The position numbers and the translations under genes were made by a program. Source: Gammaproteobacteria bacterium (GTDB lineage Bacteria; Pseudomonadota; Gammaproteobacteria; Steroidobacterales; Steroidobacteraceae). From it: a stretch of DNA of 64,000 bases. Below, one piece after another: positions 434-33,329 of this stretch. A model generated the notes under the pieces. That model made no database searches, was not told where the DNA came from, and worked only from the letters and a program-made list of their open reading frames with translations. The stretch's first letter is position 1; every line of letters starts with the position of its first letter. The stretch lies in contig JAXDQI010000256.1 of NCBI GenBank assembly GCA_034667965.1, positions 6,958 through 70,957 of the forward strand, given 5' to 3'.

Positions 434-2269
434 ATGAAGAGCATACCTCGCCTTCTTTACGTACTGCCCGTGCTCGGGCTGCTGCTGGGAGCATTGGACG
501 CGCAGGCGCAAAACTTCCGCGTGCAGTGCCCAACCAGCACACCGTTCCACCCCGATGGCAGCAACATCAAGTGCCAGCAAATCGCGGGCGGCGACGGTTA
601 CGCCACCATGGGCGACGGGTCGACCACCTACCTGTTCGGCTTCGGGCCGCTGTCGGGTCTCCCGGACATCTACAAGGGATTGCCGGGAACGCAGGTGAAC
701 AGCGTGTTCAACACGACGTTCGGTCCGGTGACCGGTACGCCGAGCAGCCTGGTGGGCATGCCGGACGGCAATTTCGCCTACGACACCGCATTCAATGGCG
801 GGCCCTTCTTGGGCGCCATCGGCCTCACCGAGGACTACGGTCTCGACCCCTGGGCCGCCGGATTGGTGTACCTCAAAGGCGCGACCGTCCGTACCGCATC
901 GGGAATCTATAGCGCGACGAGCGACGGGACGTCCGGCGCCAATACTCCGGTCGGCACAGGCACCTTCTTCGACGGCGGCGTCCATTGGGCCTATCAGGGC
1001 ACACTGCTCGACGGCCACGTCGACGCCCGGCCCATCATGGATGTGGGCGTCATGAACGCCAACCAGCCGGCGCCGTTGATCGCCATCGACGAGGACGACG
1101 AGTTGTTCCTGACGCTCACCAACGTCGGCATGATCATGCGTCCCGACCTGTTCGAACAGCACACGGTCCACTTTCACGGCTACCCGAACGCTTCCGCCTT
1201 CTACGACGGTGTTCCCGACGCCTCGATCGCCATCAACGTCGGCGGCAGCTTCACCTACTACTACCTCGCGCCCGACGCGGGCACCTACTTCTGGCACTGT
1301 CACATTGCGCCGCCCGAGCATTTGCAAATGGGCATGGTCGGTCAGCTCTACGTGCGGCCGCGGCAGAACCGGGTGGCGGCGGGGGCATCGCTGTACACGG
1401 CGCTGAGCCAATGGGAAACGGGCCCGGCGATGAAGTCGAATCCCGTAAATTTTGCCGATTGGCAGACGTATGAGAACGTGCGCAAGCGTTGCGGCACGAA
1501 CGTCGCGGCGAACATTCCGGCGGACATTCTTTGCACCACGCCGCTGCCCACGAACACGGCTGCGACGCGCGCACCCACGGGCAAGTATGCCTACAACGAC
1601 GGCGACGGCACGACCTACTACGACGTCGAATACCCGATTCAGATACACGGCTTCGACCCGAATTTCCACTTCGTCGGCATGACCTTCAATCCGGAGTCGT
1701 TCAACGACATGAAGGACAAGTACTTCATGCTGAACGGCCGCAGCTATCCCGACACGGTGGGCGGCCACGTGTGCGTGACCAATGACCCGCTACCGGCGTG
1801 CTCCGGTTCACAGGCCGTTACGGTCGGCGGCGTCAAGATAGCCCCGGGTCCGATGGAGACCCAGTCGACGGACGGTACCAACCACGCCTCGCAGCCGCTG
1901 CCGACGGTGATCAACATTCCCGCCGACGGCCACGCGCTGCTGCGCATTTCGGATCTCGACGTCAGTGAGTACCAAACCCTCGCGTCGCTCGGCATACCGA
2001 TGCGGGTGGTCGGCCTCAACGCGCGCCTGCTGCGCGACATGGCCGGCAACAACATGGCTTACAACACGAATTCGATCACGCTCGCGGGCGGTGAATCGAT
2101 CGACGTCATCCTGGACGCGACCGGTCTGCAGCCGCGCCAGAAGTTCTTTCTGTACACACCCAACCTCGATCACCTGTCGAATGACGCCGAGAACTTCGGC
2201 GGTCTCATGACCGAGGTCAACATTTGTAGCTCGGTCGACCCCCAGACCAAAGCTTGCACGAACATCTAG
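434..2269 (+). CDS. Secreted multicopper oxidase paralogue 1 (carries the type-1 Cu site plus two HxH pairs)
   Basis: 611-aa ORF with a Sec-type signal peptide (MKSIPRLLYVLPVLGLLLGALDAQAQ). It has cupredoxin motifs HTVHFHG (nt 1160-1180) and WHCHIAPPEHLQMGM (nt 1292-1336). The C-terminal 'LNGRSYPD...' region is MCO-domain-2-like and has no Cu ligands. Confidence 0.85.
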   Translation: MKSIPRLLYVLPVLGLLLGALDAQAQNFRVQCPTSTPFHPDGSNIKCQQIAGGDGYATMGDGSTTYLFGFGPLSGLPDIYKGLPGTQVNSVFNTTFGPVTGTPSSLVGMPDGNFAYDTAFNGGPFLGAIGLTEDYGLDPWAAGLVYLKGATVRTASGIYSATSDGTSGANTPVGTGTFFDGGVHWAYQGTLLDGHVDARPIMDVGVMNANQPAPLIAIDEDDELFLTLTNVGMIMRPDLFEQHTVHFHGYPNASAFYDGVPDASIAINVGGSFTYYYLAPDAGTYFWHCHIAPPEHLQMGMVGQLYVRPRQNRVAAGASLYTALSQWETGPAMKSNPVNFADWQTYENVRKRCGTNVAANIPADILCTTPLPTNTAATRAPTGKYAYNDGDGTTYYDVEYPIQIHGFDPNFHFVGMTFNPESFNDMKDKYFMLNGRSYPDTVGGHVCVTNDPLPACSGSQAVTVGGVKIAPGPMETQSTDGTNHASQPLPTVINIPADGHALLRISDLDVSEYQTLASLGIPMRVVGLNARLLRDMAGNNMAYNTNSITLAGGESIDVILDATGLQPRQKFFLYTPNLDHLSNDAENFGGLMTEVNICSSVDPQTKACTNI

Positions 2270-2279
2270 GAGAGCGGCG

Positions 2280-3935
2280 ATGCGCGCTATGAATACTAAG
2301 TCACTGCTCGGGCAGGTCCTGCAAGGCGCAACGGTCGCCCTCGGGTCGATGCTCGCACTGTCCGCGCATGCGGCGGCACCCGGCATCACCGGGGCCTCCA
2401 ACGCGCCGGTCTTCAACCTGAACGCGGCGGCGATGCGCGTCACGCAGCCAAACGGCAAGAGCTTGTACTCTTGGGGCTACGGGTGCACCTCGACCACGGG
2501 CAATAGTTTCGCGCCCGCCTCGGTGCGGGGCGCCAACTGTCCGGCGGCGCAGCTGCCGGGACCCACCTTGATCGTCACCGAAGGCGACACGGTGACCGTC
2601 AATCTCACCAACGGACTGCCTGCAGCCGCGGGCGGCACGTCGATTCTCTTCCCCGGCTTCCAAGTGGCGACGTCGGGCGGCACCACGGGATTGCTGACTC
2701 AAGAGGCGCCGAGCCTGGCCTCGTGCGTCACCGGGGGCTGCAATACCGTGAAATACACCTTCACCGCCTCGACGCCGGGTACGCACTCCTACTACAGCGG
2801 AACCCAGGGCGACCTGCAGGTTGAGATGGGGATGTACGGCGCGCTCATCGTCCTGCCGAAAACCGTGCCGAGCAATTGCATTACCGGTGTCCTCGCCGCG
2901 AACAACGTCATTGCCGAAACGACCTCCGGGGAAAGCGATTTCCGTTTGGCGAAAGCGGCCTACGACCACCCGTCCACCTGCTACGACCGGGAATATCTGT
3001 TCCAGTTCTCCGAGATGGACGACAACATCCATAGTCAAGCCGAGGCGCAGGTTCTGGCCGATCAGCTGAAGGCCGTCGGTTCGCAATGCACGAACCCCAC
3101 GGGTTGCCTGGTGGTTGCCACCGAGCCTTATCTGCCGGACTACTACTTGGTCAACGGTCGTTCGATGCCGGACGACATGGACCCGAACTACATACCCATG
3201 TACCCGAATCAGCCGTACAACGGCAATCCGCACATGCATCCCGGCGAGCAGACGCTGGTGCGCATCATCGGCCAGGGCCGATGGCAGCATCCCTTCCACG
3301 AACACGCCAATCACGTGCGAGTGCTGGCCCGCGACGGCAATCTGTTGCTGAGCCCGCCGACGAATCCCAGCGATCCGACCAGCACGCTGCCCGCGGGTCC
3401 GCTCATGTTCACCACCACCACCACGCCGGGCATGACCATGGACGGCATCTTCTATTGGACGGGCCGGGGCCTCAATTGGGACGTGTTCGGGCATGACCCG
3501 TCGCTGGTCGATTCCAACACGAAGAAGCCCTTCGTTTGCGTCCCCGACACCAACGGCTATTTCACCAGCGACCCGACCGCGCCGAACTACTACGAGTGGT
3601 GCGGCGATCACAACAAGGCGCTCGAGAAGCATCCCTTCGGGCAGGTGGCCGCCGGCGGGCCGGTGACCTTGCCGGATCCGAACATCGTCGCGAACGGCAA
3701 CTGGTACGGCGGCAGCCCATACCTCGGAGGCGAAGCCACCGTTCGCGCGGTGGGCGGGACGCCAATCCCTCCCGCCGGCACCGTCGCCAATTCGCCTTCC
3801 GGCGAGGCGGGCTTCGCTTACATGTGGCACTCGCATAACGAGCGCGAGATCACGACGTCCAACGTTTTTCCGGGCGGGATGATGATGATGATGCTCGTCG
3901 ATCCACGTAGTTTCGCGATCGACGAAACGAATTGA
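2280..3935 (+). CDS. Secreted multicopper oxidase paralogue 2 (two HxH pairs, no type-1 Cys)
   Basis: 551-aa ORF starting 11 nt after MCO1, with a signal peptide (...GSMLALSAHAAAPG). The N-terminal cupredoxin-like domain lacks HxH (TSILFPGF, GTHSYYSG at the usual motif positions). The C-terminal domain has WQHPFHEH (nt 3282-3305), WHSH (nt 3825-3836) and then GGMMMMM. Confidence 0.85.
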   Translation: MRAMNTKSLLGQVLQGATVALGSMLALSAHAAAPGITGASNAPVFNLNAAAMRVTQPNGKSLYSWGYGCTSTTGNSFAPASVRGANCPAAQLPGPTLIVTEGDTVTVNLTNGLPAAAGGTSILFPGFQVATSGGTTGLLTQEAPSLASCVTGGCNTVKYTFTASTPGTHSYYSGTQGDLQVEMGMYGALIVLPKTVPSNCITGVLAANNVIAETTSGESDFRLAKAAYDHPSTCYDREYLFQFSEMDDNIHSQAEAQVLADQLKAVGSQCTNPTGCLVVATEPYLPDYYLVNGRSMPDDMDPNYIPMYPNQPYNGNPHMHPGEQTLVRIIGQGRWQHPFHEHANHVRVLARDGNLLLSPPTNPSDPTSTLPAGPLMFTTTTTPGMTMDGIFYWTGRGLNWDVFGHDPSLVDSNTKKPFVCVPDTNGYFTSDPTAPNYYEWCGDHNKALEKHPFGQVAAGGPVTLPDPNIVANGNWYGGSPYLGGEATVRAVGGTPIPPAGTVANSPSGEAGFAYMWHSHNEREITTSNVFPGGMMMMMLVDPRSFAIDETN

Positions 3936-3952: not shown

Positions 3953-6900
3953 ATGCACCTCTTTACATCCAAGACGAGCCGGCTGATCCCTGGATTGGCG
4001 GCTTTGGCTCTCCTGCTGACAGCGAATGCGTCGCAGGCGCAAACGGTCAATCTGACCGCCGCGCCCACCAGCACCACCTTGCCCGACGGGCAAAGTGTGC
4101 CCATGTGGGGATACCATTGCACTGACGCGGGCAGCAATGGCGCGACCTGCGCAGCGGCCAACCCGGCCGTGCAGACGGCCGGAACGGGCTGGTCGCCGAT
4201 CGTGATCACCGTGCCCTATGTGGGCACCGCCACGGCCTCGAGCACCAACCTCACGATCAGCCTCACCAACAACCTGACGTTCGCCGGCGGCAAGATTCCC
4301 ACGTCGCTTACCATCGTCGGTCAGTTGGGCGGCGGCCTCGGCGGCGGCGGCACCACCAGTGTGAGCCCGGTGCATGCCGGTCAGGGAGTTACGTGGCCCG
4401 CCGCGGATCCGACCACGACGTCGACGCCGCCGGCACAGATGCCGCGCGTGCAGTCCTTCGGCACCGAAGTGGCGGTTGGCGCGACGACTGCGCTCACCTG
4501 GAACAAGCTGCGGCCCGGCACCTATTTGATCGAGTCGGGAACACACCCCTCGATTCAAGCCCCCATGGGCCTGTACGGCATTCTGGTCGTCACCACCACC
4601 TCGACCACCCCGGCTCAGGCGTATCCCACGGTCGCGGGTCTGCCCGTCACCGCGCTTGCGGTTTCTCAATATGACGCGGACCTGCCGCTGGTGCTCAGTG
4701 AAATCGATCCGGTGCAGAACGCATCAGTCGCCACCGCGGTCGCCACGACCGGCTTCTTGGAGACGACGGTGTGGAGCGGCCTGCCGGGAAAATGCGGCAA
4801 TCCGCTGAAGGCGGATGGGACCGCCAACGCGAGCTTCAACACCTGCTATCCGCCGGCCGTGAATTACAGCCCGCGCTACTATCTCGTCAACGGCGTGTCG
4901 TTCGATCGGACCAAGATTGCGTCCTCCACGGCCCAGATCCTCCCGCTGCCCGCCACCGTGTCCACGGGCAACGTCATTCTGCGCTTCGCCAACGCGGGTC
5001 TGCGCATGCACATTCCCGCGGTCGTCAACCAGCCGATGACATTGATCGCCGAAGACGGCAACCCGTTGCCCGGTCAGCCGCGCATCCAGAACGAAGTCTT
5101 CATGGCCGCCGGTAAGACGTACGACGTCGAAGTGAAGCCCACGCAGACCTCGGGCGCGTACAGCGCCGCGACGCTCGCGCTCTTCGACCGTCAGTTGAGT
5201 CTCTCCACCAACAATCAGCGCGACGGCGGCATGCAGGCGTACATCGGCGTGGCCGGCGGCGCGACGACGGGTGCCGGGTCCGTCGGGTCCGGCGTGGCCC
5301 TGGGCGGCGTCGCCGCCAAGACTTTCTACTGCGTTTCCGGCACGACGTTGTCCGTGACCGACCCCACCAGCGGATTGTTGGGCGGGACCACCGGTGCGAA
5401 CGGCGTAGCCGCCACTCCGCCCCTCCTGGCCGGCTTGACCATTCAGTCGAACGGTACGTTCACCTATGTTCCGCCGGCCACCGGCGCCTGCGGCGGCAGC
5501 TTCACTTATCTCGTCAACAATTCGCAGTCGGTCACGTCGACCATCGCGCAGTGCGATGCCACCAGCAGTACCGCGACAGGCTGCACGGTGAGCGGCCAGG
5601 CGACCTTGGTCAACGACACCTTCACCGGCACCAACGCCAAGGTATTGGCCATCAGTCCGCCGGGCGTGCTGCTAAACGACATCAATCCCGACGGCCGTCC
5701 GCTGAGCGTGGATCCCGCTACGGTGCAGTCGAGCGGATTGGTGAGCCTCGCCGTCAGTGCGGACGGATCGTTCACAGCCGTGGCGCCCGCCGCGGGCACG
5801 TATACGTTTACCTATAACGTCACGAATTCCCAGCATACGAAGGGCATCGCGCCTGCGACGGTCACGCTGAACTTCCCCCAGGGCTCGGGGCTGAAGGTCA
5901 AATTGGTTGACCAGAAGCATCAGACGGACCCGACGTGGGACCTCGCCGACGCGACCAAGAAGGGCGATTACCGCTGGATCATCGAAGAGGATCGCACCTT
6001 CTGGATCGATCCGAAGTGTCAGGTCAACAGCGCCACGCGACCGAAGGATTCTTACGGCCGCGCCTGCCCGCCGACACCGGTCGAGGCACTGGGCTACAAC
6101 TTCCACACGGCTTCCATGCCGGTGGTGGCCACCGGCTGCGTCGGCAGCATCTCTTGCGAATCGGGGCAGACGGTTTTGGGCGTGGCCGCGGTTTGCGATG
6201 TGGGTGACGGCACCTGCCGCACTGACGCTACGCAGCGCACTGAGTTGACGCCGGATCAGGTGCACCTCGATCCCAACAAGCACTACTTCATCTCCATCAT
6301 GCCGGCCGACGGCATCAACCCGACCGTCAACGGTGCGGGCGGCCCGGTGCAGGTCAATGCGACTTGCGATCCGACCACGACGAACTGCGCCATGCGCCAG
6401 TTCGACGCCACGAAGGATTGTCCGACCCCCGCCGACTTTGCGCCGGGTAGCGGAGCGTGTGGCCACAACATGGGCGGCACGCAGATCGGACCGCAATTCC
6501 TGGCGGACGGCACGCCGACCCCCCCGTCGGTCACCATCTCGCTGGTGGAGACGCCGCTGCCTTCGGCGAAGATCGCGGTGTTGGTGTACGAGGATGACTA
6601 TCCTCTCAATGGCGAGAACGATGCCGGCGGCGGCGTCGACATACTGGCGCCGAATGAAGCCGGTCTCGGCGGCTTCCAGATCGAACTTCTGGACCAAGCC
6701 GGCGCCCTCGGCGACTCCACCGGGCAGATCACCTACGACATGTTCAACATGCCGGTGAGCAATGCGCTGGCCGGCACGCCCGATCCCAACAATCACATGC
6801 AGGACGCGTGCCCGCTCACCTCGAATCCCGACAACCTCGTCGGCAGAATCATCACCTGCCCAACCTACGAAGCCGACGGCACGACCCTGTCGCCGCTCGC

Positions 6901-9900
6901 CGGACAGGCGGTGATCGCGAATCTATACCCCGGCCTCTACGAGCCCCAAGCGTTCCCGGATGCCGACCGCATCGCTCGCGGTGAGGAATGGCTGCAGACC
7001 AACACACTCGACGGCGGCAAACCGCACGAGGCCTTCATCCGACCGGGCGAACCCGCCTACTTCCAGGAATTTGGCCCGGGTGGTTTCCACGTCCAGATCG
7101 GCTTCGCCAACCCGAAGATCATCAACGATCGGCGTCACAACTTGGCCGGCACCGGCATCTGCGATGCGGTCGCCACCGGCGGCGGCGGTTTGGCGTGCAA
7201 ATCGAGCATTTCCGGCCAGGTGCACGGCAACCATATGAGCCGTACGCCGGACGAACGCACCTATGACACGGGCAGCTACGACGCGTTTGCGTTCTCGGCC
7301 TGCTACGTGTCCGTCGGAGTTCCCGATGAACAGGACTTCGCCTTCGCGAAGTGCGATGCCGAGGGCAACTACTCGATGACGGGTCTGCCTAATGGCACGT
7401 ACAAACTGGCGGTGTTCGACCAGTGGAACGACATCATGCTCGACGGCCTCATCACCAGTGTGGTCGTCAACGGCAACACCGTCGTCAATCCGACAGCGAC
7501 CCAGTGGCGCACCAATATCTATACGCGCACTTATCTCGACTTGAACGGCAACGGCATCCCGGATCGTACGTGCGATGCCAATGGCAACTGCACCGATCTT
7601 GAACCCGGCGCCCCGTTGCTTCCCATACAGGTCCGTTATCGCGACGGCAGCATCGGCTTCAAGAACAACACCGACTTGAATGGTTACGCCACGTACAACG
7701 AGGTGTTCCCCTTCATGAACTGGCTGGTGGTCGAACCCGATCAGACCCGTTACAAGCCCACCGGCGAACACGTGGTCTATGACGCCGGCGGTCCGGACGA
7801 TTGCACCACGGGGGCGGCCAAGTGCTCCAACACCGCTGCGCACCTGGCGGGCACTCAGGAATTGGTTTCCCTGCCGTTGGACCTGCGTGTGCCGGGCGCC
7901 GTGTATTGCACGGATGCCGACTGCAGCGACCCCAACGAGTCGATTCTGCTGGGCGCATACAACACCAAGACGGTCGACACCAGCAAGAATCACAACATCA
8001 CCGCCGGGCTCTCCAGCGGCCGCATCGACCCGCCGTGGCATTCCGAAGGCTGGCAGGGCCTGCTGGGCCAGCACAGCTTCATCGACTTCGGCATGAAGCC
8101 CTTCGCTGCGCATGAGAACGGCGGAATCCAGGGTCTGGTCGTGTACTACTCGACCCGCCCCTTCGACGACCCGTCGCTCGACGTGCAGCTGGTATGGGAA
8201 CCGGGCGTGCCGAACGTGCAGATCAATCTGTACCAGGAAGGCACCGCGCCGGACGGTACGACGACGCTGACGCTGGTGGACACGACTCAGACCACGAGCT
8301 GGGACAAGTGGGCCCAGGGTTTCCAAACCGACGGTCACGGTAATCTGCGTAAGCTCGCCGACGGCAGCTACGTGCCCAACATGAACTGCCCGGGCCAGGA
8401 TCCGACCAGCGGCTTCTTTGCGACCCTGCAGGGCAGCAAGATGTGGCTGGACACGGCGGACTCCACCGGCAACAAGAAGCAGCTGGCCTACAACTCGCAA
8501 TTCAAATGCTATGACGGTTGGTCCCAGTTGAACCAGATCGTACCCGCACCGTACGACGGCAAGTACACGTTCCCGAGCACCGTCGAACTCGATCCGGTCA
8601 CCGGCCGTCCCGCAGGCTTAGGTTCGCTCAACGGCATCGCTACACCGTTGATCGGCACCAACTGCAACATCTGTGTCGCCAATCCCGACGACGGCACTCC
8701 GATGCTGCCCGCCGGCAAGTATGTGGTCGAGGCGGTCATGCCCACCGGCTTCGAGATCGTCAAGGAAGAAGACAAGAACATCCTCATGGGCGACATCTAC
8801 ATTGCGCCCGTCTCGCAGCAGTTCGCGGGTCTGGGCAACGTCTTCATCCTGCCCGACCAGGCGGCGGTCAACGCGTACTACAATGCGAACAATCCGCTCA
8901 ATTCGACCACCAACTTAGGCGTGTTGAACCCGCGCGAGGATTTTGCGAGCACGGATCAGATGTGGCCCTGCGTCGGTAAGACGCGCATCGTGCCGGATAC
9001 CATGAGCCTGTTCCCCACCGTCGGCCAGACGGCACCGTTCGCCGGCGCCTCGCGGCCGCTGTGCGACCGCAAGGAAGTTTCCCTGACCGATCAGACGGGA
9101 GTGAGCGCGCGGTTCTACGCGTTCACCAAGAACCATATCGCCGGCCACTTCGTCGGCGGCATGACCAACGACATGGCCTCGGAGTTCGACCCGTTCTCGC
9201 CGCAATTCGGTGAGAAGTTCGGTGTCCCGAACCTTCCCATCCGCATGCGCGACTTCATGGGCGACGAAGTGACCCGGGTGTACGGCGACCAGTGGGGCGC
9301 CTACAACGGACTTTACTTCTCGAGCTGGGAAGTCAATCCGCCGAACCCCACCGGCTATGCGCCGCAGATGTCGGTGGCTTGCATGAACGATCCGGGTCCG
9401 ATCCTGGATGCCGATCCGACGTCGCCCACGCATGGGCAGATGATCACCGACCCGGCGTACAACCCGGCGTACAGCAACTTCTGCTACGAGACGCCGTTCA
9501 TGCCGGGCTTCACCGCCTACATGGATACGCCGGTCACTCCGACGCAGGCCTTCGCGGACCACTACAATCTGCCGGACGCGGAATATCCCGACGGTACGCC
9601 GGTCATCAAGCGCGCCGACTTCACGGGCAACGGCTTCGGCGCGGGCGGCGCCGGCCCCTGGGCGCCCGGTACTGCCGGTATCGGCAGCATCACGGTCACC
9701 AACACGGGCAGCTACACCGCGGTTCCCACCGTCGGCTTCAACGGCGGCGGCGGCAGCGGTGCCGCGGCCAGCCCGCTCATGAGCATCGGTCAGCTGAATC
9801 TGGTCAGCGCCAGCGGCTCGTACACCAACATCGCGACACCGACTGCCACCTTCTCGGCGCCGCCGTGCACCATCAACGGCACCACCTGCGTACGGGCCGT

Positions 9901-15433: not shown

Positions 15434-15459
15434 TCATCATGTGCTCTAGAGGATCAACC

Positions 15460-16269: not shown

Positions 16270-16270
16270 C

Positions 16271-22798: not shown

Positions 22799-22804
22799 GC
22801 CACC

Positions 22805-23985
22805 GTGGAATTTCGTGTAAAAGCCCTCGACCGCGAGCAGGCTGTACTAGCGCAGCACGTGGATGCCATCGACGAGATGGACGCGCGCCGGCAGTTGGGC
22901 TTGCTGGGCCTGCGGGTGATTTCTCTCACCCCCGTTCGCCAGACGCGGCTCTTCGCCCGGCCGGGCAAGATTCCGCTGGTCATATTCAGCCAAGAGCTGG
23001 TGTCGCTGCTAGATGCCGGCTTGTCTCTGGTCGAAGCCATTGAGGCGCTGACCGAGAAGGAAGCCAGCCCCACGGTGCGGCGGCCCCTCGAGCAGATTCT
23101 CGCCCGGTTGTACGAAGGCCAGACGTTGGGCGCGGCGCTCGCCGAGCATCCGACGACATTTCCGTATTTGTACATCGCCACGGTCCGCGCGAGCGAACGT
23201 ACGGGATCGCTGCGCGAGGCGCTGACCCGGTTCATCACCTATCAGCAGCAAATCGACGCCCTGCGCAAGACCCTCGTCAACGCGTCGATCTATCCGGCGG
23301 TGTTGCTGGGCGCCGGCTTGCTGGTCACGCTGTTCCTGATGGGCTACGTGGTGCCGCGCTTCAGTTCGATCTACGAAGAACTGGGTTCTGACCTGCCGTT
23401 CGCTTCGCGGCTGCTCATGCAGTGGGGCCAGATGCTCGAAGCGCACACCATGGTGGTGATCGCGGTCGGCGGCACGGCGGCGGCGGCGCTCGGATATGGA
23501 TTGTCGCGGCGCTCGACCCGCGCGCTCTTCGGCACGTGGTTCGCGAAAGTGCCGGCGATCGGGCGCCAACTGCGCCTGTATCAGTTGGCGCGACTGTACC
23601 GGACGGTGGGCATGCTCCTGCGCAGCGGTATGCCCGCAGTGACGGCGATGACCATGTCGTCGGGGCTGCTCAGCGAAGCACTGCGCCCGGCGTTCACGAA
23701 GGCGACGCAGTCGGTGAGGGAAGGGCAGTCGATCGCCAACGCGATGGAACTTCAGGGTCTCACCACTCCGGTCGCCGCCCGCATGCTGCGCGTCGGCGAG
23801 CGCAGCGGCAACATGGGTGAGATGACGGAGCGCATCGCCGCGTTTTACGACGAAGAGATCGCACGCTGGGTGGCCATCGTGACTCGCTTGATCGAGCCGC
23901 TGTTCATGACGCTGATCGGACTGCTGATCGGCGTCATCGTGGTCCTGATGTATTTCCCGATATTCCAACTGGCCGGAAGTGTCCA

Positions 23986-23989
<4 letters not shown>
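22805..23989 (+). CDS. gspF: GspF/PilC-family inner-membrane platform protein
   Basis: 394 aa with a GTG start. It has the duplicated T2SSF pattern (two cytoplasmic helical domains, each followed by TM segments), e.g. IFSQELVSLLDAGLSLVEAIEAL and LYRTVGMLLRSGMPAVTAM. Confidence 0.85.
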
Positions 23990-25735
<1,746 letters not shown>

Positions 25736-25755
<20 letters not shown>

Positions 25756-26551
25756 TGAAGTGGGAATTTATCTCGCCCAGCGGCGAGTGTGCCTGATCCG
25801 CATGCGGCGCGGCATTCGCCCGACATTGGCGGGCGAGGTGGACCACGCGGATCCGAACGCCGCAGTCGGCTGGGAGGGTGCGCTTGCGCTGCTGGAACGG
25901 CAGTTGACGGAAGGTGCATGGTCCGACGCGCGTGTCCGCGTGGTGCTTGCCGATCACTGGGTGCGTTATGCCGTGGTGCCGTGGTCCGACGCATTGAGTT
26001 CCTCGGGCGAGCGGCTGGCGCACGCCCGCGAATTGATGGCCGGGATCTTCGGCGCTGAAATGAGTGATTGGACCGTGTCCCTGTCCGAGGCGCCGCCCGG
26101 CTCATCGCGACTGGCGAGCGCCATGCCGACCGCCTTGCTGCATGAGCTGCGCGAAGCCGCGGTGCGGCATGGTCAGAAGCTCGTGTCCGTGCAGCCGCAG
26201 CTCATCGCTGCGTACAACACCTGGCGCCACGCTCTTCCCGCCGCCACCGCCGCCTGGTTCGTCACCGTCGAAGAGGGTTCCCTTGCGGCGCTGCGCATGT
26301 GCGGCGACGGGATCGACCGGGTGCATGCGGTCCGTATCGGGCTCGATTGGGCGCGTGAACTGAAGCGGCTGCAGACCTTCGGCCGCCTTGCCAGCGCGAG
26401 TCCCAGCGACGGGCGGGTGTACGTCGATCTACCGGCCGCCCTGCGCTCTTTGCGCCCGGAGGCCTCGGCGGATTTGGAATGGCTCGATGAACCGAATCCT
26501 CCGCTGACCACTTTGCATCAGCTCGAACATCTGCGCAGAAGGGCCGCATGA
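25736..26551 (+). CDS. PilM/GspL/MshI-like cytoplasmic assembly protein (hypothetical)
   Basis: 271 aa, overlapping the gspE stop. No TM segment. The position and size are like PilM/MshI. Assignment rests on context and weak pattern only. Confidence 0.45.
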
Positions 26552-27081
26552 GAAACGCGATTCAACTGGATTTCGCCGGGGCGCGCCCCGGCTTATCGCT
26601 GGCGGGCGGATTGCTGCTGGCGGTGGGGGTGGTCGCGGCCGGGGCCGTGCTGCTCGAGTACCGCGCAATCGGCCAGCATCGCGCCGGTCTCGAGCTCAGA
26701 CTGGCCGCAGTGGCCCGCGCGGATGCGCTCGCGGCCCCGCCCATCGAATCGCCAGCGGATAGCCGTGTTGCCGTGAGCGCGCAGCAGGCGGCCACCGACC
26801 TCGCGACGCCATGGACCTTGTTGTTGTCGGAACTCGAACAGGCGAGCAAGGAGACGCAGGGACAGGTCGCACTGCTCGGCGTCGAGCCGGATCACGCCAA
26901 GCACAACGTGCGCGTCAGTGCCGAGGCTCGCACACTGAGTTTGGCGCTGGCCTATGTGGAGCGTCTGCAAGCGAGCCGGTCACTGAGCTATCCGATGCTC
27001 GACCGCCATGAGATCCGCGCCGAAGATGCGCAGCATCCGGTGCGTTTCGAATTGACCGGCGCATGGAGAGACATACCGTGA
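26548..27081 (+). CDS. PilN/MshJ-like bitopic assembly protein (hypothetical)
   Basis: 177 aa with a 4-nt overlap with the previous ORF. It has a single N-terminal TM (LSLAGGLLLAVGVVAAGAVLL) followed by a periplasmic domain. Confidence 0.45.
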   Translation: MRNAIQLDFAGARPGLSLAGGLLLAVGVVAAGAVLLEYRAIGQHRAGLELRLAAVARADALAAPPIESPADSRVAVSAQQAATDLATPWTLLLSELEQASKETQGQVALLGVEPDHAKHNVRVSAEARTLSLALAYVERLQASRSLSYPMLDRHEIRAEDAQHPVRFELTGAWRDIP

Positions 27082-27737
27082 ACGCCCCCGAGGATAACCG
27101 CAGCGTGACGCGGTCCCCCATGCCGGGCGCCGCGCAGCCGGGCGTCGCGCGGCCGCCGGCCGCGCTTGCGGTCACATCGCGAACGGCATTGCAGGCGCGT
27201 GCCGAACAGATGCTGGTGCGCGCCGTGCCGCAGGTGAAGTATCAACTCATGCGGGTGGGTCCCGCCGGGTTGACGGGGATCGGAGTGCTGCTCGCGGCCG
27301 CCGTCGCGGCGATAGTCCTGCTGCTCCCGGCGCACCAATCAGTGCTCGCGCTGCGGGACGAGCTGACCAAGGCGGGCCATGCGATGCCGTCCACGGTGAA
27401 GCCGGAGCAGAGTCCGCAACAGTTCGCGGCGACGCTGCCCACCCGCGAGCAGATTCCGGCGTTGCTGGGAGTGGTGCTCGCACAGGCGACCGACGCGGGC
27501 ATCGTCCTGGAACAGGGGCGCTACACTTTCAGCCCGGCGACTTCCAACCGGCTTGCCCGTTATACCTTCGAATTTCCGGTCAAAGCGGACTACGGCAACA
27601 TCCGCAGCTTCATCAACAAGTCGCTGGCGGCGATTCCGGCGCTGGGATTGGACAAGTTGCACGTCGAACGCAAGACCGTCGGTGACACGGCGGTCAGCGC
27701 CGACGTCGGCTTCGTCATTTATCTGCGAGGTGCATAG
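27063..27737 (+). CDS. PilO/GspM-like bitopic assembly protein (hypothetical)
   Basis: 224 aa with one TM (LTGIGVLLAAAVAAIVLLL), a coiled segment, and a C-terminal ferredoxin-like pattern (YTFEFPVKADYGNIRSFINKSLAAIPAL) as in PilO/GspM. Confidence 0.5.
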   Translation: MERHTVNAPEDNRSVTRSPMPGAAQPGVARPPAALAVTSRTALQARAEQMLVRAVPQVKYQLMRVGPAGLTGIGVLLAAAVAAIVLLLPAHQSVLALRDELTKAGHAMPSTVKPEQSPQQFAATLPTREQIPALLGVVLAQATDAGIVLEQGRYTFSPATSNRLARYTFEFPVKADYGNIRSFINKSLAAIPALGLDKLHVERKTVGDTAVSADVGFVIYLRGA

Positions 27738-28276
27738 TGTTGGGCAAGGTCACGCTGCGCACCAAGGCTCTCATCGGCATCGCCTTGGCCTGCGCCGGAT
27801 ACATCGTATTCATGCCGGACGCGTCTCAGACCATCGAGCCCACGCATGGCACGGGGTCGCCCGGCGCCGCCTCGCCGACGCGCACCATCCATCCCGCGCC
27901 GGCCGGCCACAAATCCCCCGTGATGAATGCCGCCTTGCGCCAGTCCGATCGCATCGCCAGGGACACGGAGGCGGGATCCCTGTTCTCCGCGCAATCCTGG
28001 TACGTGGCGCCGCCTGCGCCGCCGCCCGTGCCGGTGGTCTATCAACCGCCGCCCGCGCCGACTGCGCCGCCGCTGCCGTTTGCATTCATGGGCAGCTATC
28101 GCACCGACGGCGGCGGCGCGATCTACTACCTCACCGCGGGCGATCGGGTTTACGACGTCAAGGTCGGCGACACGCTCGACAACACCTACAGCGTGGACGG
28201 AGTCAAATCCGGGCACCTGCTGCTGACCTATATGCCTCTCAAAATTCAGCAATCTCTTGCTGTGGGCGATGAATAA
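27737..28276 (+). CDS. PilP/GspC-HR-like protein (hypothetical)
   Basis: 179 aa with an N-terminal TM, a Pro-rich linker (PPAPPPVPVVYQPPPAPTAPPLP) and a C-terminal beta-rich module (IYYLTAGDRVYDVKVGDTLDNTYSVDGVKSGHLLLTY). It lies directly upstream of the secretin. Confidence 0.45.
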   Translation: MLGKVTLRTKALIGIALACAGYIVFMPDASQTIEPTHGTGSPGAASPTRTIHPAPAGHKSPVMNAALRQSDRIARDTEAGSLFSAQSWYVAPPAPPPVPVVYQPPPAPTAPPLPFAFMGSYRTDGGGAIYYLTAGDRVYDVKVGDTLDNTYSVDGVKSGHLLLTYMPLKIQQSLAVGDE

Positions 28277-30627
28277 TGATGAACAGATCCCTTAGAAATC
28301 TCCTTGGAACGCTGCTCTGCACCGCGGTGCTGCTGGGCTGCGCAGCCACGCAGCTGCATCGCGACGGCCTCGCGGAGGTGGAGCGCGGCAATTACGAAAC
28401 CGGGGTGTCCAAGCTCGCCGATGCGGTCGCTCAAGATCCCAACAACATGATGTACAAGCTGGATCTGACGGCGCGGCGCGAGGCCTCGATCCAGAAATTG
28501 ATTTCCGCCGGCGACGCGCTGCGCGGCGCCGGGCAGTGGGATGCCGCGGTGTCCACCTATCGTCGAGTGCTGGTGCTTGAAGCGGGCAATCAGCCGGCCT
28601 TGCGCGGTATCGAGGGCGTCGACGCCGATCGGCGCCACGCCGGCATGGTGGGCGAAGCCTTCAAGGCTTTCGAACGCAAAGACTACGATGCGGCCGATGC
28701 GATTCTGCGATCCGTGCTTAATGAGGACGCCGGCTTCGGACCCGCGGTGGCGCTTGCCGCCAAGATCAATGTGGCGCGCGGACCCATCAATGTGGTGCCT
28801 CGGCTGAAGGCGCGCAATAACGCGAAGGTCACCCTGCAGTTCCGCGATGCGCCCACGAAAATGGTGTTCGAGGTGTTGGCGCGGCAGACGGGCATCAATT
28901 TCGTGCTCGACAAGGATGTGAAGAGCGACAGCAAGACCACGATCTTCGTCCAGGAAGTGCCGATCGAGGAGCCCATCGACCTGGTGCTCGATCAGAACGC
29001 GCTGGCGCGGCAGATTCTCTCGTCGAACATGGTGCTCATCTATCCGAATACCCCGGCCAAGCAAAAGGACTACGAGGAACAGATCGTCCACACGTTCTAT
29101 TTGACCAATGCCGTCCCCAAGGACGTGGAGAGCATGTTGAAGTCCATGCTCGGCGCCAAGACCCTGTTCGTCGATGAGCGCACCAGCGTCGTCGTGATGC
29201 GCGATACCCCGGATGCGGTGCGCATGGCCGAGAAACTGGTGGCCTCGATCGACGTGCCGGAGCCTGAGGTCCTGATCGAAGTGGAAGTGCTCGAGATCGC
29301 TCGCAGCAAGCTGCTCAATCTCGGAATCACCCCTCCCGGCTCCTTCACGGCCAGCGCCACGTCGGTCCTTAAAGGAGCGACCGCCGGCGCAACGAGCGGG
29401 GCCTCGAATCTCGTTCTGTCCGACCTGAGCCACCAGAATGCCAATACCATCAGTGTCTCGTCGGTGAGCCTCACCGCGAACGCCCTGCAGACGGTGGGCA
29501 ACACCAACACGCTGGCGAGTCCGCGCATCCGCGCGCGCAACAAGGAAAAAGCGAAAATCCTGATAGGCAGCCGTGTTCCGGTCATCACCAGCAGCACGGC
29601 GCTTCTGTCCAATGGCACGGCGAACAGCAGCAGCGTTCAGTACCTCGACGTGGGGTTGACGCTGGAGGTCCAGCCGACCGTTTATCTGGACGGCGACGTG
29701 TCCATCAAAGTAGGGCTGGAGGTCAGCTCCATCACCAACACGGTGGTCGTCGGAGGCACACAGGCGTATACGATCGGTACGCGCAACGCCAACACCCTGT
29801 TGCGGCTGAAGGACGGGGAGACCCAGGTATTGGCCGGCCTGATCCAGGACTCGGACACGCGCAACGCCGCCGGAATCCCGGGATTGAGCCAAATTCCGGT
29901 CGTGGGACGCTTGTTCGGTTCGCACAATTCCGACCGGGAGAAAAACGAGATCGTGCTGTCGATCACGCCGCACATCATCCGCACGCAGGCGCGGCCCGCT
30001 TCCGATGCGACGGAATTCTGGTACGGCACCGAAACCCGCTCGCGGAGCACGCCATTTGGCGGTGGCGGCGGCTTCGACAGCGGCGGTTCGTCGGCGGCCT
30101 CCGCCGGCGCAGTCGGCGGCGGTGCAGGACTGCCGACGGTCGGACCTCGGCCTTCGGTATCGCAACCCGTTGCGCCCGCGGCGCCCGCACCCTTGCCGTC
30201 CCCGGCCGCACCGGCAGGCCCGCCGCCCCATCCCACGGTGACGGTCGACGGACCCAGTGAAACCTCGGTGGGTCAGGAATTCGACGTCACCGTGCGCGTT
30301 GCCACGGACGTGGGTATAAGCCGTCTGCGTGGCCAGCTCCGATTCGACTCCAGTGCGCTGCAACTCATGAGTGCGACCGCGGGGGACCTCGTGCCCTCCA
30401 GCGCGGGCAGTCCGACCGTCGATGCGAAAAGTGGAGGTGCGCAGTTGGACGTTACGGCGTCTGACGATCCCATCCAGGGCGAAGGCAGCCTGATGCTGCT
30501 GCGATTCAAGGCGCTCACGGCCCGCCCGGCGAGTCCGATCTCCGCGCAGGTGTCCGCGATGGGACCCGCGGGCACGGCGACGGCGAACGCGGCATCGCAG
30601 CCGCTGAGCGTCGCAATCAAACCGTGA
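28276..30627 (+). CDS. gspD: Secretin (GspD/PilQ/MshL family) lipoprotein fused to an N-terminal TPR region and a C-terminal cohesin-like domain
   Basis: 783 aa with a lipobox (AVLLGCAA) and TPR-like helices (aa ~30-170). It has an STN/N0-like segment (VTLQFRDAPTKMVFEVLARQTGINFVLDKDV) and a secretin core (GETQVLAGLIQD...IPGLSQIPVVGRLFG). A Gly/Ala/Pro linker leads to a cohesin-like tail (VGQEFDVTVRVATDVGISRLRGQLRFDSSALQLMS...GSLMLLRFKAL). Confidence 0.85.
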   Translation: MMNRSLRNLLGTLLCTAVLLGCAATQLHRDGLAEVERGNYETGVSKLADAVAQDPNNMMYKLDLTARREASIQKLISAGDALRGAGQWDAAVSTYRRVLVLEAGNQPALRGIEGVDADRRHAGMVGEAFKAFERKDYDAADAILRSVLNEDAGFGPAVALAAKINVARGPINVVPRLKARNNAKVTLQFRDAPTKMVFEVLARQTGINFVLDKDVKSDSKTTIFVQEVPIEEPIDLVLDQNALARQILSSNMVLIYPNTPAKQKDYEEQIVHTFYLTNAVPKDVESMLKSMLGAKTLFVDERTSVVVMRDTPDAVRMAEKLVASIDVPEPEVLIEVEVLEIARSKLLNLGITPPGSFTASATSVLKGATAGATSGASNLVLSDLSHQNANTISVSSVSLTANALQTVGNTNTLASPRIRARNKEKAKILIGSRVPVITSSTALLSNGTANSSSVQYLDVGLTLEVQPTVYLDGDVSIKVGLEVSSITNTVVVGGTQAYTIGTRNANTLLRLKDGETQVLAGLIQDSDTRNAAGIPGLSQIPVVGRLFGSHNSDREKNEIVLSITPHIIRTQARPASDATEFWYGTETRSRSTPFGGGGGFDSGGSSAASAGAVGGGAGLPTVGPRPSVSQPVAPAAPAPLPSPAAPAGPPPHPTVTVDGPSETSVGQEFDVTVRVATDVGISRLRGQLRFDSSALQLMSATAGDLVPSSAGSPTVDAKSGGAQLDVTASDDPIQGEGSLMLLRFKALTARPASPISAQVSAMGPAGTATANAASQPLSVAIKP

Positions 30628-31509: not shown

Positions 31510-31512
31510 CAT

Positions 31513-32040
31513 GTGGGGAACCGATCAGGCCGTGCGACGGGATTCACCAACGTGGCGGGCTTCACCTACATCGGCCTCTTGATCGCCATCGTCATTCTGG
31601 GTGTGGGGCTGTCGGCCGTAGGTGTCGTCTGGCGCACGCAAGCGCAACGCGAACGCGAACAGGAACTGTTGTTCATCGGACGCGACTTCAAGCGGGCGAT
31701 CGCCTCGTACTACATGGATGCCGGAAACGGCGGCCATCAGTATCCGCAGGAGATAGCCGACCTGCTGGACGACAAGCGGGGCACCGAAATACATCACCAC
31801 CTGCGGCGCTTCTACGCCGATCCCATGACCGGCGCGCAGGACTGGAACCTCATTCGAGTCGATATGCTCGGCATTACCGGGATCGCGAGCAGTTCGCAAA
31901 ATGCGCCGATCAAGAAGTCCGGATTCCCGAAGGACGAATCGGAATTTGAAGACGCAACGTGCTATTGCGACTGGAAATTCCTGTATCAACCGCGAATCCT
32001 CGGGCGCCGCGCCAATCCCGTTCCCCGGGCCGCGGATTGA
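31513..32040 (+). CDS. Pseudopilin 4 (divergent prepilin-type N-terminus)
   Basis: AG/FTYIGLLIAIVILGVGL followed by FKRAIASYYMDAGNGGHQYPQEIADLL. 175 aa. Confidence 0.7.
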   Translation: MGNRSGRATGFTNVAGFTYIGLLIAIVILGVGLSAVGVVWRTQAQREREQELLFIGRDFKRAIASYYMDAGNGGHQYPQEIADLLDDKRGTEIHHHLRRFYADPMTGAQDWNLIRVDMLGITGIASSSQNAPIKKSGFPKDESEFEDATCYCDWKFLYQPRILGRRANPVPRAAD

Positions 32041-33329
32041 CCACATCCGATAAATTGCCCCCCCAGGGGCCGGCCGAATCGCCGGCGACTCCGGCTGCGA
32101 CCTTTCGGGCGATCGAAAAGGCGAAGCATGAGTGGGAATTCACCGTGGACGCCCTCACCGCCCTGGTGTGTCTGCTCGACCCCGATGGCATCGTGCTGCG
32201 TGCGAATCGCGTCGTCGAGCACTGGGGACTTGGATCGGTCGGCGGCGTGATCGGAAGAAGCGCGCACTCCATTCTTCATCCGGACTGCCCCGATGGCGAT
32301 TGCGAGGTTGCGCGCCGGCTCCGGGATGCATTGCCGAAGCTCCGCAACGGCTTTCCGCAGGAGTTCGAAGCCTATTCATCCGACGCTGATCGGACGCTGC
32401 AGTACACGCTGCGCCCGATGCGCACCGGCGACGACCCGCCGCCACAGCCGAACGATGGACGCAACGTGCTGGTCGTCACCGATGTATCCGCGTTGCGCCG
32501 CGCGCAGCGGGCTCTCGAAAACGTCAATCTCGACCTGGAGTCGCGCGTACAGCTGCGCACCCGCGAGCTGCACGATTCCAATCGCGAGCTTCGCGGCGAA
32601 GTCGTACGGCGCGAACAGGCGGAGCTCGAGCTTCGAGCATCGAGCAATAATCTGGCGCTGCTCTCCGAGCAGTTGATCCAGGCGCAGGAGGTCGAGCGCC
32701 GACGCATCGCCCTCGAACTGCACGACTCCGTCGGTCAAAGTTTAAGCGCCATCAAATACACGCTGGAGCGCGCCATCATCATGGTGCAGCGAGGCAACCT
32801 CGGGAGCCCCGAGAGCGTGTTGACCCTGGCAGTGCAGCGTATTCATGAAACGGCCGATGGGATACGCGCGATATCGATGAATCTGCGGCCGCAGATGCTC
32901 GATAACCTGGGAGCGGCGTCGGCGACCAGTTGGTTCTGCCGTGGTTTCGCCGAGATCTATCCGACGCTGGACGTGCGGGCCGAGATCACGGCATTGAACG
33001 GCGAAATCCCGAATCGAATTTCGACGCACCTCTACCGCTGCGTACAGGAATTGCTCAATAATGTGGCCAAGCATGCCGACGCGAACACCGTCTGGGTGAC
33101 GCTCAAGCGCGAGGGTCCGAGCTTGAGTCTCGAGGTGCGCGATGACGGCAGCGGGATGCAGACCCTGGCGGACGACCCGTCGCGATTGCACGGTTCCGGC
33201 ATCCGCAATATACGGGAGCGGGCCGACATGACCTTCGGACAATTTACGCTGGCATCCTCGCCGAGCGGGGGAACCTCCGCGCAGATCATTTGGCGCCTGG
33301 ACGACAACGACTTCGCGGAAGGGATCTAG
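31959..33329 (+). CDS. Cytoplasmic PAS-domain sensor histidine kinase, HisKA_3 (NarX/DegS-type) family
   Basis: PAS-like region (HEWEFTVDALTALVCLLDPDGIVLRANR), a coiled coil, an H-box (ELHDSVGQSLSAIKY) and a HATPase_c domain (VRDDGSGM...GSGIRNIRERA). No TM segment. The start is uncertain: a TTG at 32037 would overlap the pseudopilin stop as TTGA. Confidence 0.8.
   Translation: MLLRLEIPVSTANPRAPRQSRSPGRGLTTSDKLPPQGPAESPATPAATFRAIEKAKHEWEFTVDALTALVCLLDPDGIVLRANRVVEHWGLGSVGGVIGRSAHSILHPDCPDGDCEVARRLRDALPKLRNGFPQEFEAYSSDADRTLQYTLRPMRTGDDPPPQPNDGRNVLVVTDVSALRRAQRALENVNLDLESRVQLRTRELHDSNRELRGEVVRREQAELELRASSNNLALLSEQLIQAQEVERRRIALELHDSVGQSLSAIKYTLERAIIMVQRGNLGSPESVLTLAVQRIHETADGIRAISMNLRPQMLDNLGAASATSWFCRGFAEIYPTLDVRAEITALNGEIPNRISTHLYRCVQELLNNVAKHADANTVWVTLKREGPSLSLEVRDDGSGMQTLADDPSRLHGSGIRNIRERADMTFGQFTLASSPSGGTSAQIIWRLDDNDFAEGI

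Follow-up and report, generated by a model that had tools for sequence, protein, structure and literature searches.

The stretch of DNA analysed here (the window) comprises 64,000 nucleotides of contig JAXDQI010000256.1 from a Gammaproteobacteria bacterium (assembly GCA_034667965.1); it has a G+C content of 62-67%, and its closest named relatives are Steroidobacteraceae. Between positions 434 and 33329 the window carries multicopper oxidase (MCO) genes followed by genes for secretion and regulation. We read this locus as encoding a multi-subunit extracellular MCO, periplasmic helpers for its maturation and a dedicated, atypical type II secretion system (T2SS) that exports it, and put the probability of this reading at roughly 70%. 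The oxidase is most likely secreted and tethered to the cell surface. The gene content was established from the listing of open reading frames (ORFs) and from Pfam and NCBIfam scans, and the three oxidase genes are as follows:

434..2269, plus strand: MCO1, 611 amino acids (aa), with a Sec signal peptide (Pfam, PDB matches, copper ligands)
2280..3935, plus strand: MCO2, 551 aa, with a signal peptide (Pfam, motif conservation, hhalign)
3953..14152, plus strand: giant secreted protein, 3399 aa (domain scans, hhalign, conservation profile)

In MCO1 the Cu-oxidase_3 (PF07732, 53.5 bits) and Cu-oxidase_2 (PF07731, 48.7 bits) families both score above their gathering thresholds, and in MCO2 the same families reach 47.5 bits and 20.5 bits, the latter against a cut-off of 20.4. 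MCO1 was found to have a complete type-1 copper site (H243, C289, H296 and M301) and four histidines of a trinuclear cluster (H246, H248, H288 and H290). These are carried in the motif H243-T-V-H246-F-H248-G and, 40 residues on, in H288-C289-H290-x5-H296-x4-M301; beyond these HxxHxH and HCH motifs the MCO1 sequence holds no HxH pair. The first cupredoxin domain of MCO2 is free of ligands, and its second domain carries four cluster histidines in H337-P-F-H340-E-H342-x2-H345 and W-H517-S-H519, with a serine where the type-1 cysteine would stand. The ligands of both proteins are invariant in eight orthologues, from Steroidobacteraceae metagenome-assembled genomes (MAGs), Cupriavidus metallidurans CH34, Ralstonia syzygii and Paraburkholderia largidicola. 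Neither MCO1, nor MCO2, nor the giant protein holds all four copper motifs in one polypeptide. As judged from these motifs, a set of eight cluster histidines and one type-1 site is supplied only by MCO1 and MCO2 jointly, and their invariance supports the proposal of a first-pass annotation, made from the DNA letters alone, that the oxidase is split across polypeptides. We know of no characterised MCO in which the trinuclear cluster lies between two different gene products.

The copper domain of MCO1 has as its best PDB matches domain 1 of the two-domain MCOs 3g5w and 2zwn and the copper nitrite reductases, with which it shares the five-residue spacing of HCH-x5-H. Two-domain MCOs and nitrite reductases are trimers of two-cupredoxin subunits, with catalytic copper held between the subunits. 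Profile-profile comparison by hhalign aligned MCO2 (residues 44-369) with the N-terminus of the giant (31-382) at 99.3% (E=1e-20) and MCO1 (210-443) with MCO2 (91-301) at 96.4% (E=1e-9); a direct comparison of the MCO1 and giant profiles was not significant. The first 450 residues of the giant thus appear as a two-cupredoxin module paralogous to MCO2 that has lost all ligands, and when the protein was scanned in pieces the Cu-oxidase middle domain PF00394 was recovered at residues 306-408 (26.6 bits against 21). The MCO trio named by the first-pass annotation is therefore borne out by profile similarity, as three paralogous two-cupredoxin modules. These modules would form a hetero-trimeric six-domain ring, like the homotrimer of a two-domain MCO or like ceruloplasmin, in which a single O2-reducing cluster would sit at the MCO1/MCO2 interface, and the ring would be tied covalently, via the head of the giant, to a scaffold of beta-sandwich, beta-helix and TIG domains.

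MCO1 has 7,292 matches at E<=1e-5, partly outside this family, and a protein identical to it occurs in JGI samples. The names MofA, OmpB, MnxG and McoA are absent among the matches of the homologue searches, as far as annotation names go. Names of copper-resistance oxidases were rejected: copper_res_A (TIGR01480) is the best NCBIfam match of MCO1 and yet scores 36.7 bits against a cut-off of 478.95, and with MCO2 the CopA/CueO models reach 31.6 bits against 478.95 (TIGR01480) and 16.7 against 525 (NF008205).

Beyond its cupredoxin head, the giant protein continues with Big_9/cadherin-like domains, a Cys-rich beta-sandwich core (about 700-1900 and 2100-2800), a Beta_helix/NosD-like region and three C-terminal TIG/choice-of-anchor-Z repeats. 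Of the core residues, 40-59% are invariant among four distant orthologues, and residues 1900-2100 and the C-terminal repeats are specific to lineages; the orthologues of Cupriavidus, Ralstonia and Paraburkholderia measure 2,700-2,800 aa. Within the window, the corresponding stretches 9650-10250 (giant residues about 1900-2100, a Gly/Ser/Thr-rich segment) and 13250-14152 (the three C-terminal TIG/choice-of-anchor-Z repeats) are missing or cannot be aligned in those three genera. No relative of the core profile was found in the PDB by sequence. An AlphaFold2 model of residues 705-1900 was of low confidence (predicted local distance difference test score, pLDDT, 56.8; predicted template modelling score 0.57), and in a Foldseek search it returned CnaB/SdrD-B pilin-type beta-sandwiches only, with very low TM-scores. 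The conservation profile of the core holds no invariant HxH pair. From its domains and this model, we read the giant as a scaffold of Ig-like domains rather than as a second enzyme or a specific relative of the pilin-type proteins. Relatives of the core with 50-57% identity were also seen in MAGs of Acidobacteria (Bryobacteraceae, Vicinamibacterales) and Hyphomicrobiaceae (P0412, P0436, P0461, P0465 and P0426), and the system therefore reaches well beyond the beta- and gammaproteobacteria.

Further evidence that the giant belongs with the oxidase comes from fusion proteins. A HMMER search with MCO1 gave 283 representatives at E<=1e-30, and 25 of the best 150, which were inspected for fusions, were proteins of 980-2816 aa that end in an MCO1-like module. 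For 21 of them the region ahead of this module aligns to the central region of the giant, within residues of about 770-2700, indicating that the giant core and the MCO1 module act together physically. All 25 have the HxxHxH and HCH..H..M motifs and none has the WHSH half. In one such locus (L089) an MCO2-like gene comes next after the fusion gene, and thus the second subunit is always separate. The same locus is flanked by genes for a cytochrome c protein of matching size (552 aa, with a faint Cytochrom_C match and 30% identity to a cytochrome paralogue encoded upstream of the window), SCO1, an SLT protein, a PAS-HisKA_3 kinase and GspG/F/E, from which it follows that the secretion genes travel with the fusion variant as well. 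A look-up of the long fusion proteins in sequence clusters gave no informative name among them. Between the MCO2-like gene and the kinase gene of L089, at 19779-21650, lies a gene for a Peptidase_S8 protein with a MopE-type copper-binding domain, which may be a processing protease or a copper scavenger and has no counterpart in the window.

Whether the secretion genes accompany the oxidase in other genomes was addressed with a scan of one genome per species, in which a profile of the cytochrome c protein of the locus (a fusion to a periplasmic binding protein domain, described below) found 80 loci; these were then searched by tblastn with all window proteins. They belong to Paraburkholderia, Burkholderia, Collimonas, Trinickia, Caldimonas, Paraherbaspirillum and Sulfuricella and, among higher groups, to Thiobacillaceae, Nevskiaceae and Steroidobacteraceae. 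The giant is present in 72 of the 73 loci with enough left flank, and at least two of the three genes that lie between giant and cytochrome (for a 162-aa protein and two LolA-like proteins) in 74 of 76. T2SS-like genes were found within 10 kb downstream in 33 of the 54 loci whose right flank is complete (in Paraburkholderia, 17 of 19), and several of the loci scored as negative break off within the regulators or the ExeA gene ahead of the machine. Three loci could be viewed in full from plasmid and chromid records. In P. largidicola synteny is nearly complete: the secretion genes lie downstream, the genes for FKBP, ExeA-FHA and the 166-aa and 87-aa small proteins are missing, a lytic transglycosylase gene follows the cytochrome and a sigma-54 regulator gene follows the pseudopilins. 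The annotation of two of its secretion genes as gspG_3 and gspF_2 points to an extra T2SS in that genome. In C. metallidurans CH34 the platform, secretin and pseudopilin genes lie immediately upstream of MCO1, as do the secretion genes of R. syzygii, and the machine has the opposite orientation in Caldimonas and in two Burkholderiales MAGs.

The adjacency thus recurs, in varied gene order, in Steroidobacteraceae, Nevskiaceae, Paraburkholderia, Burkholderia, Collimonas, Caldimonas, Cupriavidus and Ralstonia. It was recovered as well in a reverse search of soil metagenomes anchored on the 271-aa platform protein of the machine, in which 13 of 20 loci with a flank of at least 7.5 kb held genes of the oxidase system and most of the other seven were too short on the side in question. 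The arrangement goes well beyond chance: dozens of genomes have this gene set, in rearranged order. In the first-pass annotation, independent assortment of oxidase and secretion genes in other genomes had been named as grounds for giving up the idea of a joint system; when this was examined the linkage proved to be conserved, both in the 33 of 54 loci and in the reverse search. The wider gene set proposed there survives in part, as the linkage holds but the FKBP gene (adjoining in 14 of 80 loci) and the ExeA-FHA gene (6 of 80), both confined to Steroidobacterales-type loci, are specific to that lineage and do not belong to the core. An apparent counter-example (P0197 and L004/L016) was rejected, being a paralogous cytochrome beside a frameshift-riddled variant locus. 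In L004/L016 (contig_21085 of 733 kb, positions 11700-21600) many short genes are called and a stop codon breaks the MCO2-like frame, which probably reflects frameshift errors of a long-read assembly, or else a decaying copy.

The secretion and regulatory genes of the window are the following:

19664..20488, plus strand: NarL/LuxR-type response regulator with a GerE domain (likely start 19748)
20491..20889, plus strand: receiver-only response regulator, 132 aa (Pfam)
20916..22088, minus strand: ExeA/MshM-like AAA ATPase with a C-terminal FHA domain, 390 aa (AAA_22 and FHA)
22316..22798, plus strand: major pseudopilin GspG (TIGR01710)
22805..23989, plus strand: GspF/PilC-type platform protein (Pfam T2SSF)
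23986..25755, plus strand: GspE/PilB-type secretion ATPase (T2SSE, 411.7 bits)
25736..28276, plus strand: four assembly-platform ORFs of 271, 177, 224 and 179 aa (position, topology)
28276..30627, plus strand: outer-membrane secretin, 783 aa, N-terminal TPR, C-terminal Cohesin-like domain (TPR, Secretin_N, Secretin, Cohesin)
30624-31106, 31096-31509 and 31513-32040, plus strand: three minor pseudopilins (N_methyl motif in the first two)
31959..33329, plus strand: PAS_4-HisKA_3-HATPase_c sensor kinase (Pfam)

GspG, with 173 bits against the TIGR01710 cut-off of 88.85, is the only component of the machine that reaches a family cut-off. GspF scores 259 bits against an equivalog cut-off of 424, GspE 484.6 against 630.25 for GspE and 470.2 against 675.65 for PilB, and the secretin 164.9 against 351.35 for GspD, 174.6 against 284.35 for PilQ and 115.5 against 250.2 for MshL. 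Among the ORFs from 22316 to 33329 no Pfam or NCBIfam match to GspC, GspL, GspM or GspH/I/J/K was found, and the minor pseudopilins reach just 18-35 bits against GspH/J. The 271-aa platform protein is predicted to be cytoplasmic, and those of 177, 224 and 179 aa have one transmembrane segment each by hydropathy. In the first-pass annotation these four were called a PilMNOP quartet and the machine MSHA-like. The latter label fails the family thresholds, and the former describes position and topology only, since none of the four has a Pfam or PDB match above threshold: PilO matches a window protein at 16.1 bits against 22 (E=0.013), PilN matches the Paraburkholderia orthologue only, at 20.3 bits against 22.8 (E=5.6e-4), PilM and PilP have no match in the platform ORFs, and the 271-aa protein has none in the PDB. 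A third minor pseudopilin does exist, as had been claimed, but the frame given for it (31503-31949) is Arg-rich nonsense; the correct one, 31513-32040, has a prepilin-like N-terminus with GFTYIGLL. Among NCBIfam models the ExeA-FHA ATPase comes nearest to the XrtA/PEP-CTERM-associated ATPase, with a score of 116 bits against 324. On these scores the machine is best described as an atypical T2SS-like system. The PAS-HisKA_3 kinase is the probable partner of the NarL-type regulator; the labels MctS and MctR were rejected for the two, at 132-133 bits against cut-offs of 700 and 300.

Between the oxidase genes and the regulators, and at the left edge of the window, lie the genes of the putative helpers:

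1..93, plus strand: 3' end of a lytic transglycosylase gene (DUF4124 and SLT; placed by offset against the source contig, L001)
14162..14662, plus strand: small secreted protein, at most 166 aa, start uncertain (weak CpxP/Spy-like 'Metal_resist' match)
14685..14948, plus strand: small ORF, 87 aa, signal-like N-terminus (poorly conserved, gene status uncertain)
14945..15433, plus strand: small secreted protein, 162 aa (core member, no known family)
15439..16269, plus strand: LolA_like protein 1, 276 aa (PF17131, 27.1 bits, cut-off 30)
16241..17110, plus strand: LolA_like protein 2, paralogue of the first (true start probably near 16271)
17110..18786, plus strand: fusion of a mono-haem cytochrome c and a type-I periplasmic binding domain, 558 aa (invariant CxxCH and Met)
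18783..19592, minus strand: FKBP-type peptidyl-prolyl isomerase, FkpA/Mip-like, 269 aa (FKBP_N and FKBP_C)

In the source contig the window is preceded by genes for a second cytochrome c/periplasmic binding protein (547 aa), a HAMP kinase, three small proteins, SCO1/SenC and the SLT protein, so that the oxidase system continues past the left edge of the window. SCO1 and SLT are linked to the oxidase system in most loci, and in the Burkholderiaceae loci SCO1 directly follows the cytochrome. In the cytochrome fusion of the window the haem-binding C73-x2-C76-H77 and M149 are invariant in 18 homologues; the Pfam matches to Cytochrom_C and Peripla_BP_6 are sub-threshold and no PDB entry matches by sequence. 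Its architecture, and only the architecture, is that published for MofC-like proteins (PMC5566968). The FKBP gene, with FKBP_N at 62.8 bits and FKBP_C at 76 bits, stands beside the oxidase genes, an arrangement of the mof type. LolA_like protein 2 is recognised solely by its 35-40% identity to LolA_like protein 1, and both are conserved in all loci. The 162-aa protein, which has no Pfam or NCBIfam match, is positive by tblastn in nearly all 80 loci, and the 166-aa protein is conserved in the Steroidobacterales-type loci and Caldimonas. Directly behind its signal-like segment the 166-aa protein contains AAGSSV repeats, which are encoded by a tandem repeat at 14260-14315 of the window (unit of 18 bp, 3.1 copies, 92% matches).

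We propose that copper is loaded in the periplasm, because MCO1, MCO2 and the giant all carry Sec-type signal peptides. Candidate helpers for this stage would be SCO1/SenC, the cytochrome c/periplasmic binding protein fusion, the FKBP isomerase, the two LolA-like proteins and the 162-aa protein. The folded complex would then leave the cell through GspG/F/E, the four platform proteins, the TPR-secretin and the three minor pseudopilins, the peptidoglycan being opened by the lytic transglycosylase and the ExeA-like ATPase, and outside the cell it would oxidise its substrate and reduce O2. The best candidate substrates are solid or dissolved Fe(II) and Mn(II), phenolics and Cu(I) being possible too, and expression would be under the NarL-type two-component regulators.

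It could be argued that the machine does not export the oxidase but builds a surface fibre, a type IV or MSHA-like pilus by which the cell would attach to minerals or other surfaces, and that the oxidase is merely co-regulated with it and exported otherwise, for example by a housekeeping Gsp system. The PilQ score of the secretin, the weak PilN and PilO matches, the presence in the locus of an MshM/ExeA-like ATPase and a weak MshEN match, and the failure to find canonical GspC/L/M and GspH-K would all agree with a pilus. We think it unlikely, since the first pilin passes the GspG equivalog cut-off, no retraction ATPase of the PilT type turned up between 434 and 33329, the linkage persists through three different gene orders, and the precedents are for MCO secretion by an atypical T2SS (PMC3543383, PMC3056050). 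An additional proposal would be a laccase-like complex that cross-links or matures the giant scaffold or a matrix polymer, in the manner of CotA-type spore-coat oxidases, and so serves as a biofilm or adhesion device. Such a role would suit the adhesin-type domains of the giant (Big_9, cadherin-like, CnaB/SdrD-B-like, beta-helix and TIG) and the host genera, which are soil- or plant-associated heterotrophs. However, in an iron oxidiser a cluster of the same description has its expression raised specifically on a solid Fe(II) mineral (PMC12016527), and cytochrome c and SCO1 accompany the oxidase as they do in the metal-redox mof and ompB clusters (PMC5566968); we therefore hold cross-linking to be distinctly unlikely.

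Copper homeostasis, in which a periplasmic cuprous oxidase of the CopA/CueO kind and a copper chaperone would stand beside unrelated neighbours, was suggested by copper_res_A as the best NCBIfam match of MCO1, by the linked SCO1/SenC and by the weak 'Metal_resist' match of the 166-aa protein. Yet the copper_res_A score is a small part of its cut-off, CopB/C/D were not detected, the twin-arginine (RR) motif typical of Tat signals is missing from the signal peptides, and the oxidase is accompanied by a giant secreted protein whose core is fused to it in other lineages, which makes this explanation very improbable. Finally, the oxidase and secretion operons might have been juxtaposed by chance in this genome. 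The locus does consist of at least five transcription units on two strands, and some related loci have no secretion genes within 10 kb; nevertheless, given that the adjacency recurs in different gene orders across the families and genera listed above and again when the search starts from a protein of the secretion machine, coincidence is scarcely credible.

Several points weigh against an exported, split-centre oxidase as we propose it. About 175 residues separate the two histidine pairs of MCO2, compared with about 40 between the corresponding pairs of canonical MCOs, and the second domain of MCO2 has no PDB match by sequence. The AlphaFold2 model of MCO1, built from 35 homologues, was unusable (mean pLDDT 48) and lends the ring no structural support. 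With only GspG meeting its cut-off and the secretin slightly nearer to PilQ than to GspD, pilus building is possible. A prepilin peptidase gene is absent from 434-33329, the rest of the window having been scanned in part. Twenty-one of the 54 loci with a full right flank have no secretion gene within 10 kb downstream, where placement upstream or farther away is possible, and the Steroidobacteraceae MAG SMAG_U4306 has two loci with giant, LolA-like and cytochrome genes (L007 and L081) and the machine beside L081 only. One machine may serve both loci of that genome; the L081 copy also has two tandem cytochrome/periplasmic binding protein genes. Orthology to the iron-oxidiser genes Slit_1816-1818 (see below) rests on their published description. 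As to the substrate, the proteomics of the iron oxidiser would favour solid Fe(II), the parallels with mof and Pseudomonas would favour Mn(II), and the ecology of the hosts leaves a phenolic substrate possible.

A broader suggestion, which we offer tentatively and consider somewhat improbable, is that the locus represents a copper-based route for oxidising extracellular solid Fe(II) or Mn(II) without cytochrome conduits, with a split interface cluster, a ring closed by the head of the giant, which would keep the enzyme on the mineral, and private T2SS-like export of the entire folded, copper-loaded complex, and that it is widespread in soil heterotrophs (Burkholderiaceae, Steroidobacteraceae and Acidobacteria) not regarded as metal oxidisers.

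The locus as a whole comprises 26 genes between 434 and 33329, where the first-pass annotation had counted about 27; every gene that it named was found, at or near the coordinates that it gave except for the third pseudopilin. Its description of the genes as mostly co-directional is also right for the 24 on the plus strand. The remaining two, for FKBP and ExeA-FHA, lie on the minus strand, and at least five transcription units are therefore needed. Promoter and terminator scans of the locus gave sites no more numerous than in shuffled sequence, and an Rfam scan of the locus found no regulatory RNA. Beyond 33329 the window continues with housekeeping genes (alcohol dehydrogenase, suf, aldolase, dnaX, ppsA). 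Adjoining the end of the locus are two long ORFs that overlap on opposite strands, 34667-35977 (plus) and 34811-36130 (minus), of which the plus ORF has no Pfam match. A tRNA-Ser(GGA) gene (54567-54656) and the gene for the small signal recognition particle (SRP, 4.5S) RNA (54900-54997) lie just upstream of dnaX; the mechanically called dnaX ORF (54903-56639, TTG start) overlaps the SRP RNA, and the true start of dnaX must therefore be later.

The locus bears on how large copper oxidases leave Gram-negative cells, on why mutants in secretion and cytochrome maturation lose Mn oxidation, and on the role of the uncharacterised 'cupredoxin clusters' of iron oxidisers. Oxidase, helpers, exporter and regulators lie side by side in tractable hosts, namely C. 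metallidurans CH34, the R. solanacearum species complex (R. syzygii) and Paraburkholderia, and these questions are thus testable by knockouts. A split trinuclear cluster, if true, would be a new way to build an MCO and a present-day counterpart of the trimeric intermediates that have been postulated for MCO evolution. The thousands of MCO1 relatives in soil metagenomes suggest an overlooked share in Fe, Mn or phenolic turnover.

The closest known counterpart is found in the iron oxidiser Sideroxydans lithotrophicus ES-1, in which He et al. in 2017 noted a cupredoxin trio together with a mofC-like cytochrome and SCO1 (PMC5566968). In a proteomic study from 2025 the cluster, Slit_1812-1818, showed higher expression on magnetite than on Fe(II)-citrate; the products described for it are two proteins with MCO motifs, a cupredoxin protein of very large size that has adhesin-like and lyase-like domains, a cytochrome, SCO1 and small proteins, and clusters resembling it were reported from Paraburkholderia, Ralstonia, Anaeromyxobacter and Steroidobacteraceae (PMC12016527). 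Of these, Paraburkholderia, Ralstonia and Steroidobacteraceae also carry the oxidase system in the present comparison. Like Slit_1812-1818, the locus has a tandem trio of cupredoxin genes, of which two encode MCO motifs and the third is far longer, in the company of genes for small proteins, a cytochrome and SCO1/SenC, and when the window is taken together with its source contig the same gene content and order are found as in the published description. Likened on that description, the oxidase core of the window and Slit_1812-1818 almost certainly are the same gene family, the ES-1 giant having adhesin-like and polysaccharide-lyase-like domains. Unlike what is seen in the window, the published account of the ES-1 cluster includes neither a secretion system nor regulators nor an FKBP, and it calls the motifs of the two small proteins 'canonical', with no remark on half ligand sets (PMC12016527). 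The published accounts that were compared make no mention of the T2SS-like/NarL linkage, of the two-plus-two division of ligands, of a ring of three paralogues or of fusion proteins. The first-pass annotation knew of no description of such an architecture as a unit, and this holds for the secretion and regulation genes and the split site but not for the oxidase core, which is already published, as an uncharacterised cluster (PMC5566968, PMC12016527).

Two parallels drawn in the first-pass annotation were confirmed in the literature. In Leptothrix discophora mofA is followed by the FKBP gene mofB and the cytochrome c gene mofC (PMC5566968, PMC8218464), and in Pseudomonas putida GB-1 Mn oxidation needs a Gsp-related pathway, ccm genes and MnxS/R (PMC3056050). 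In Geobacter, secretion of the MCO OmpB needs an atypical T2SS with several pseudopilins (PMC3543383, PMC5566968). The locus, with the genes upstream of the window, resembles mof and OmpB (GSU1394, with GSU1397 and GSU1398, of G. sulfurreducens) in having a putative extracellular MCO with helper genes, among them the FKBP isomerase (MofB), the cytochrome c with a periplasmic binding protein (MofC-like) and SCO1/SenC. However, MofA is reported to carry all four motifs A-D in one polypeptide (PMC8218464), whereas in the window they are split two and two. The T2SS genes on which OmpB depends lie near cell-division and DNA-uptake genes (PMC3543383) and are not described beside ompB. Neither the mof nor the ompB system has a 3,400-aa partner, and their likeness to the window is one of gene architecture. 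Its functional ingredients also match those of P. putida GB-1, in which there are large MCOs, an SCO-family protein and a chaperone in the mnxG operon, dependence on the maturation of c-type cytochromes, a non-canonical Gsp-related pathway and two-component regulation (PMC3056050, PMC8218464). In GB-1 these components are identified as separate loci not described as one cluster, no giant scaffold is described, and MnxG and McoA are described with all four motifs in one chain, unlike the split centre of the window.

In Bacillus, the catalytic centre is complete within MnxG, to which the small subunits are accessory, whereas in the window the centre itself appears to be divided. That enzyme, MnxG with MnxE and MnxF, is a multi-subunit multicopper Mn oxidase (PMC12016527, its reference 60). 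Elsewhere, BCAM0447 of Burkholderia cenocepacia, a 'putative exported multicopper oxidase', was induced 13-fold in chronic lung infection (PMC3417382). As for the two-domain MCOs 3g5w and 2zwn, these are homotrimers with three equivalent sites, whereas in the window three different products would come together and one site would result, as in the single-chain, six-domain ceruloplasmin.

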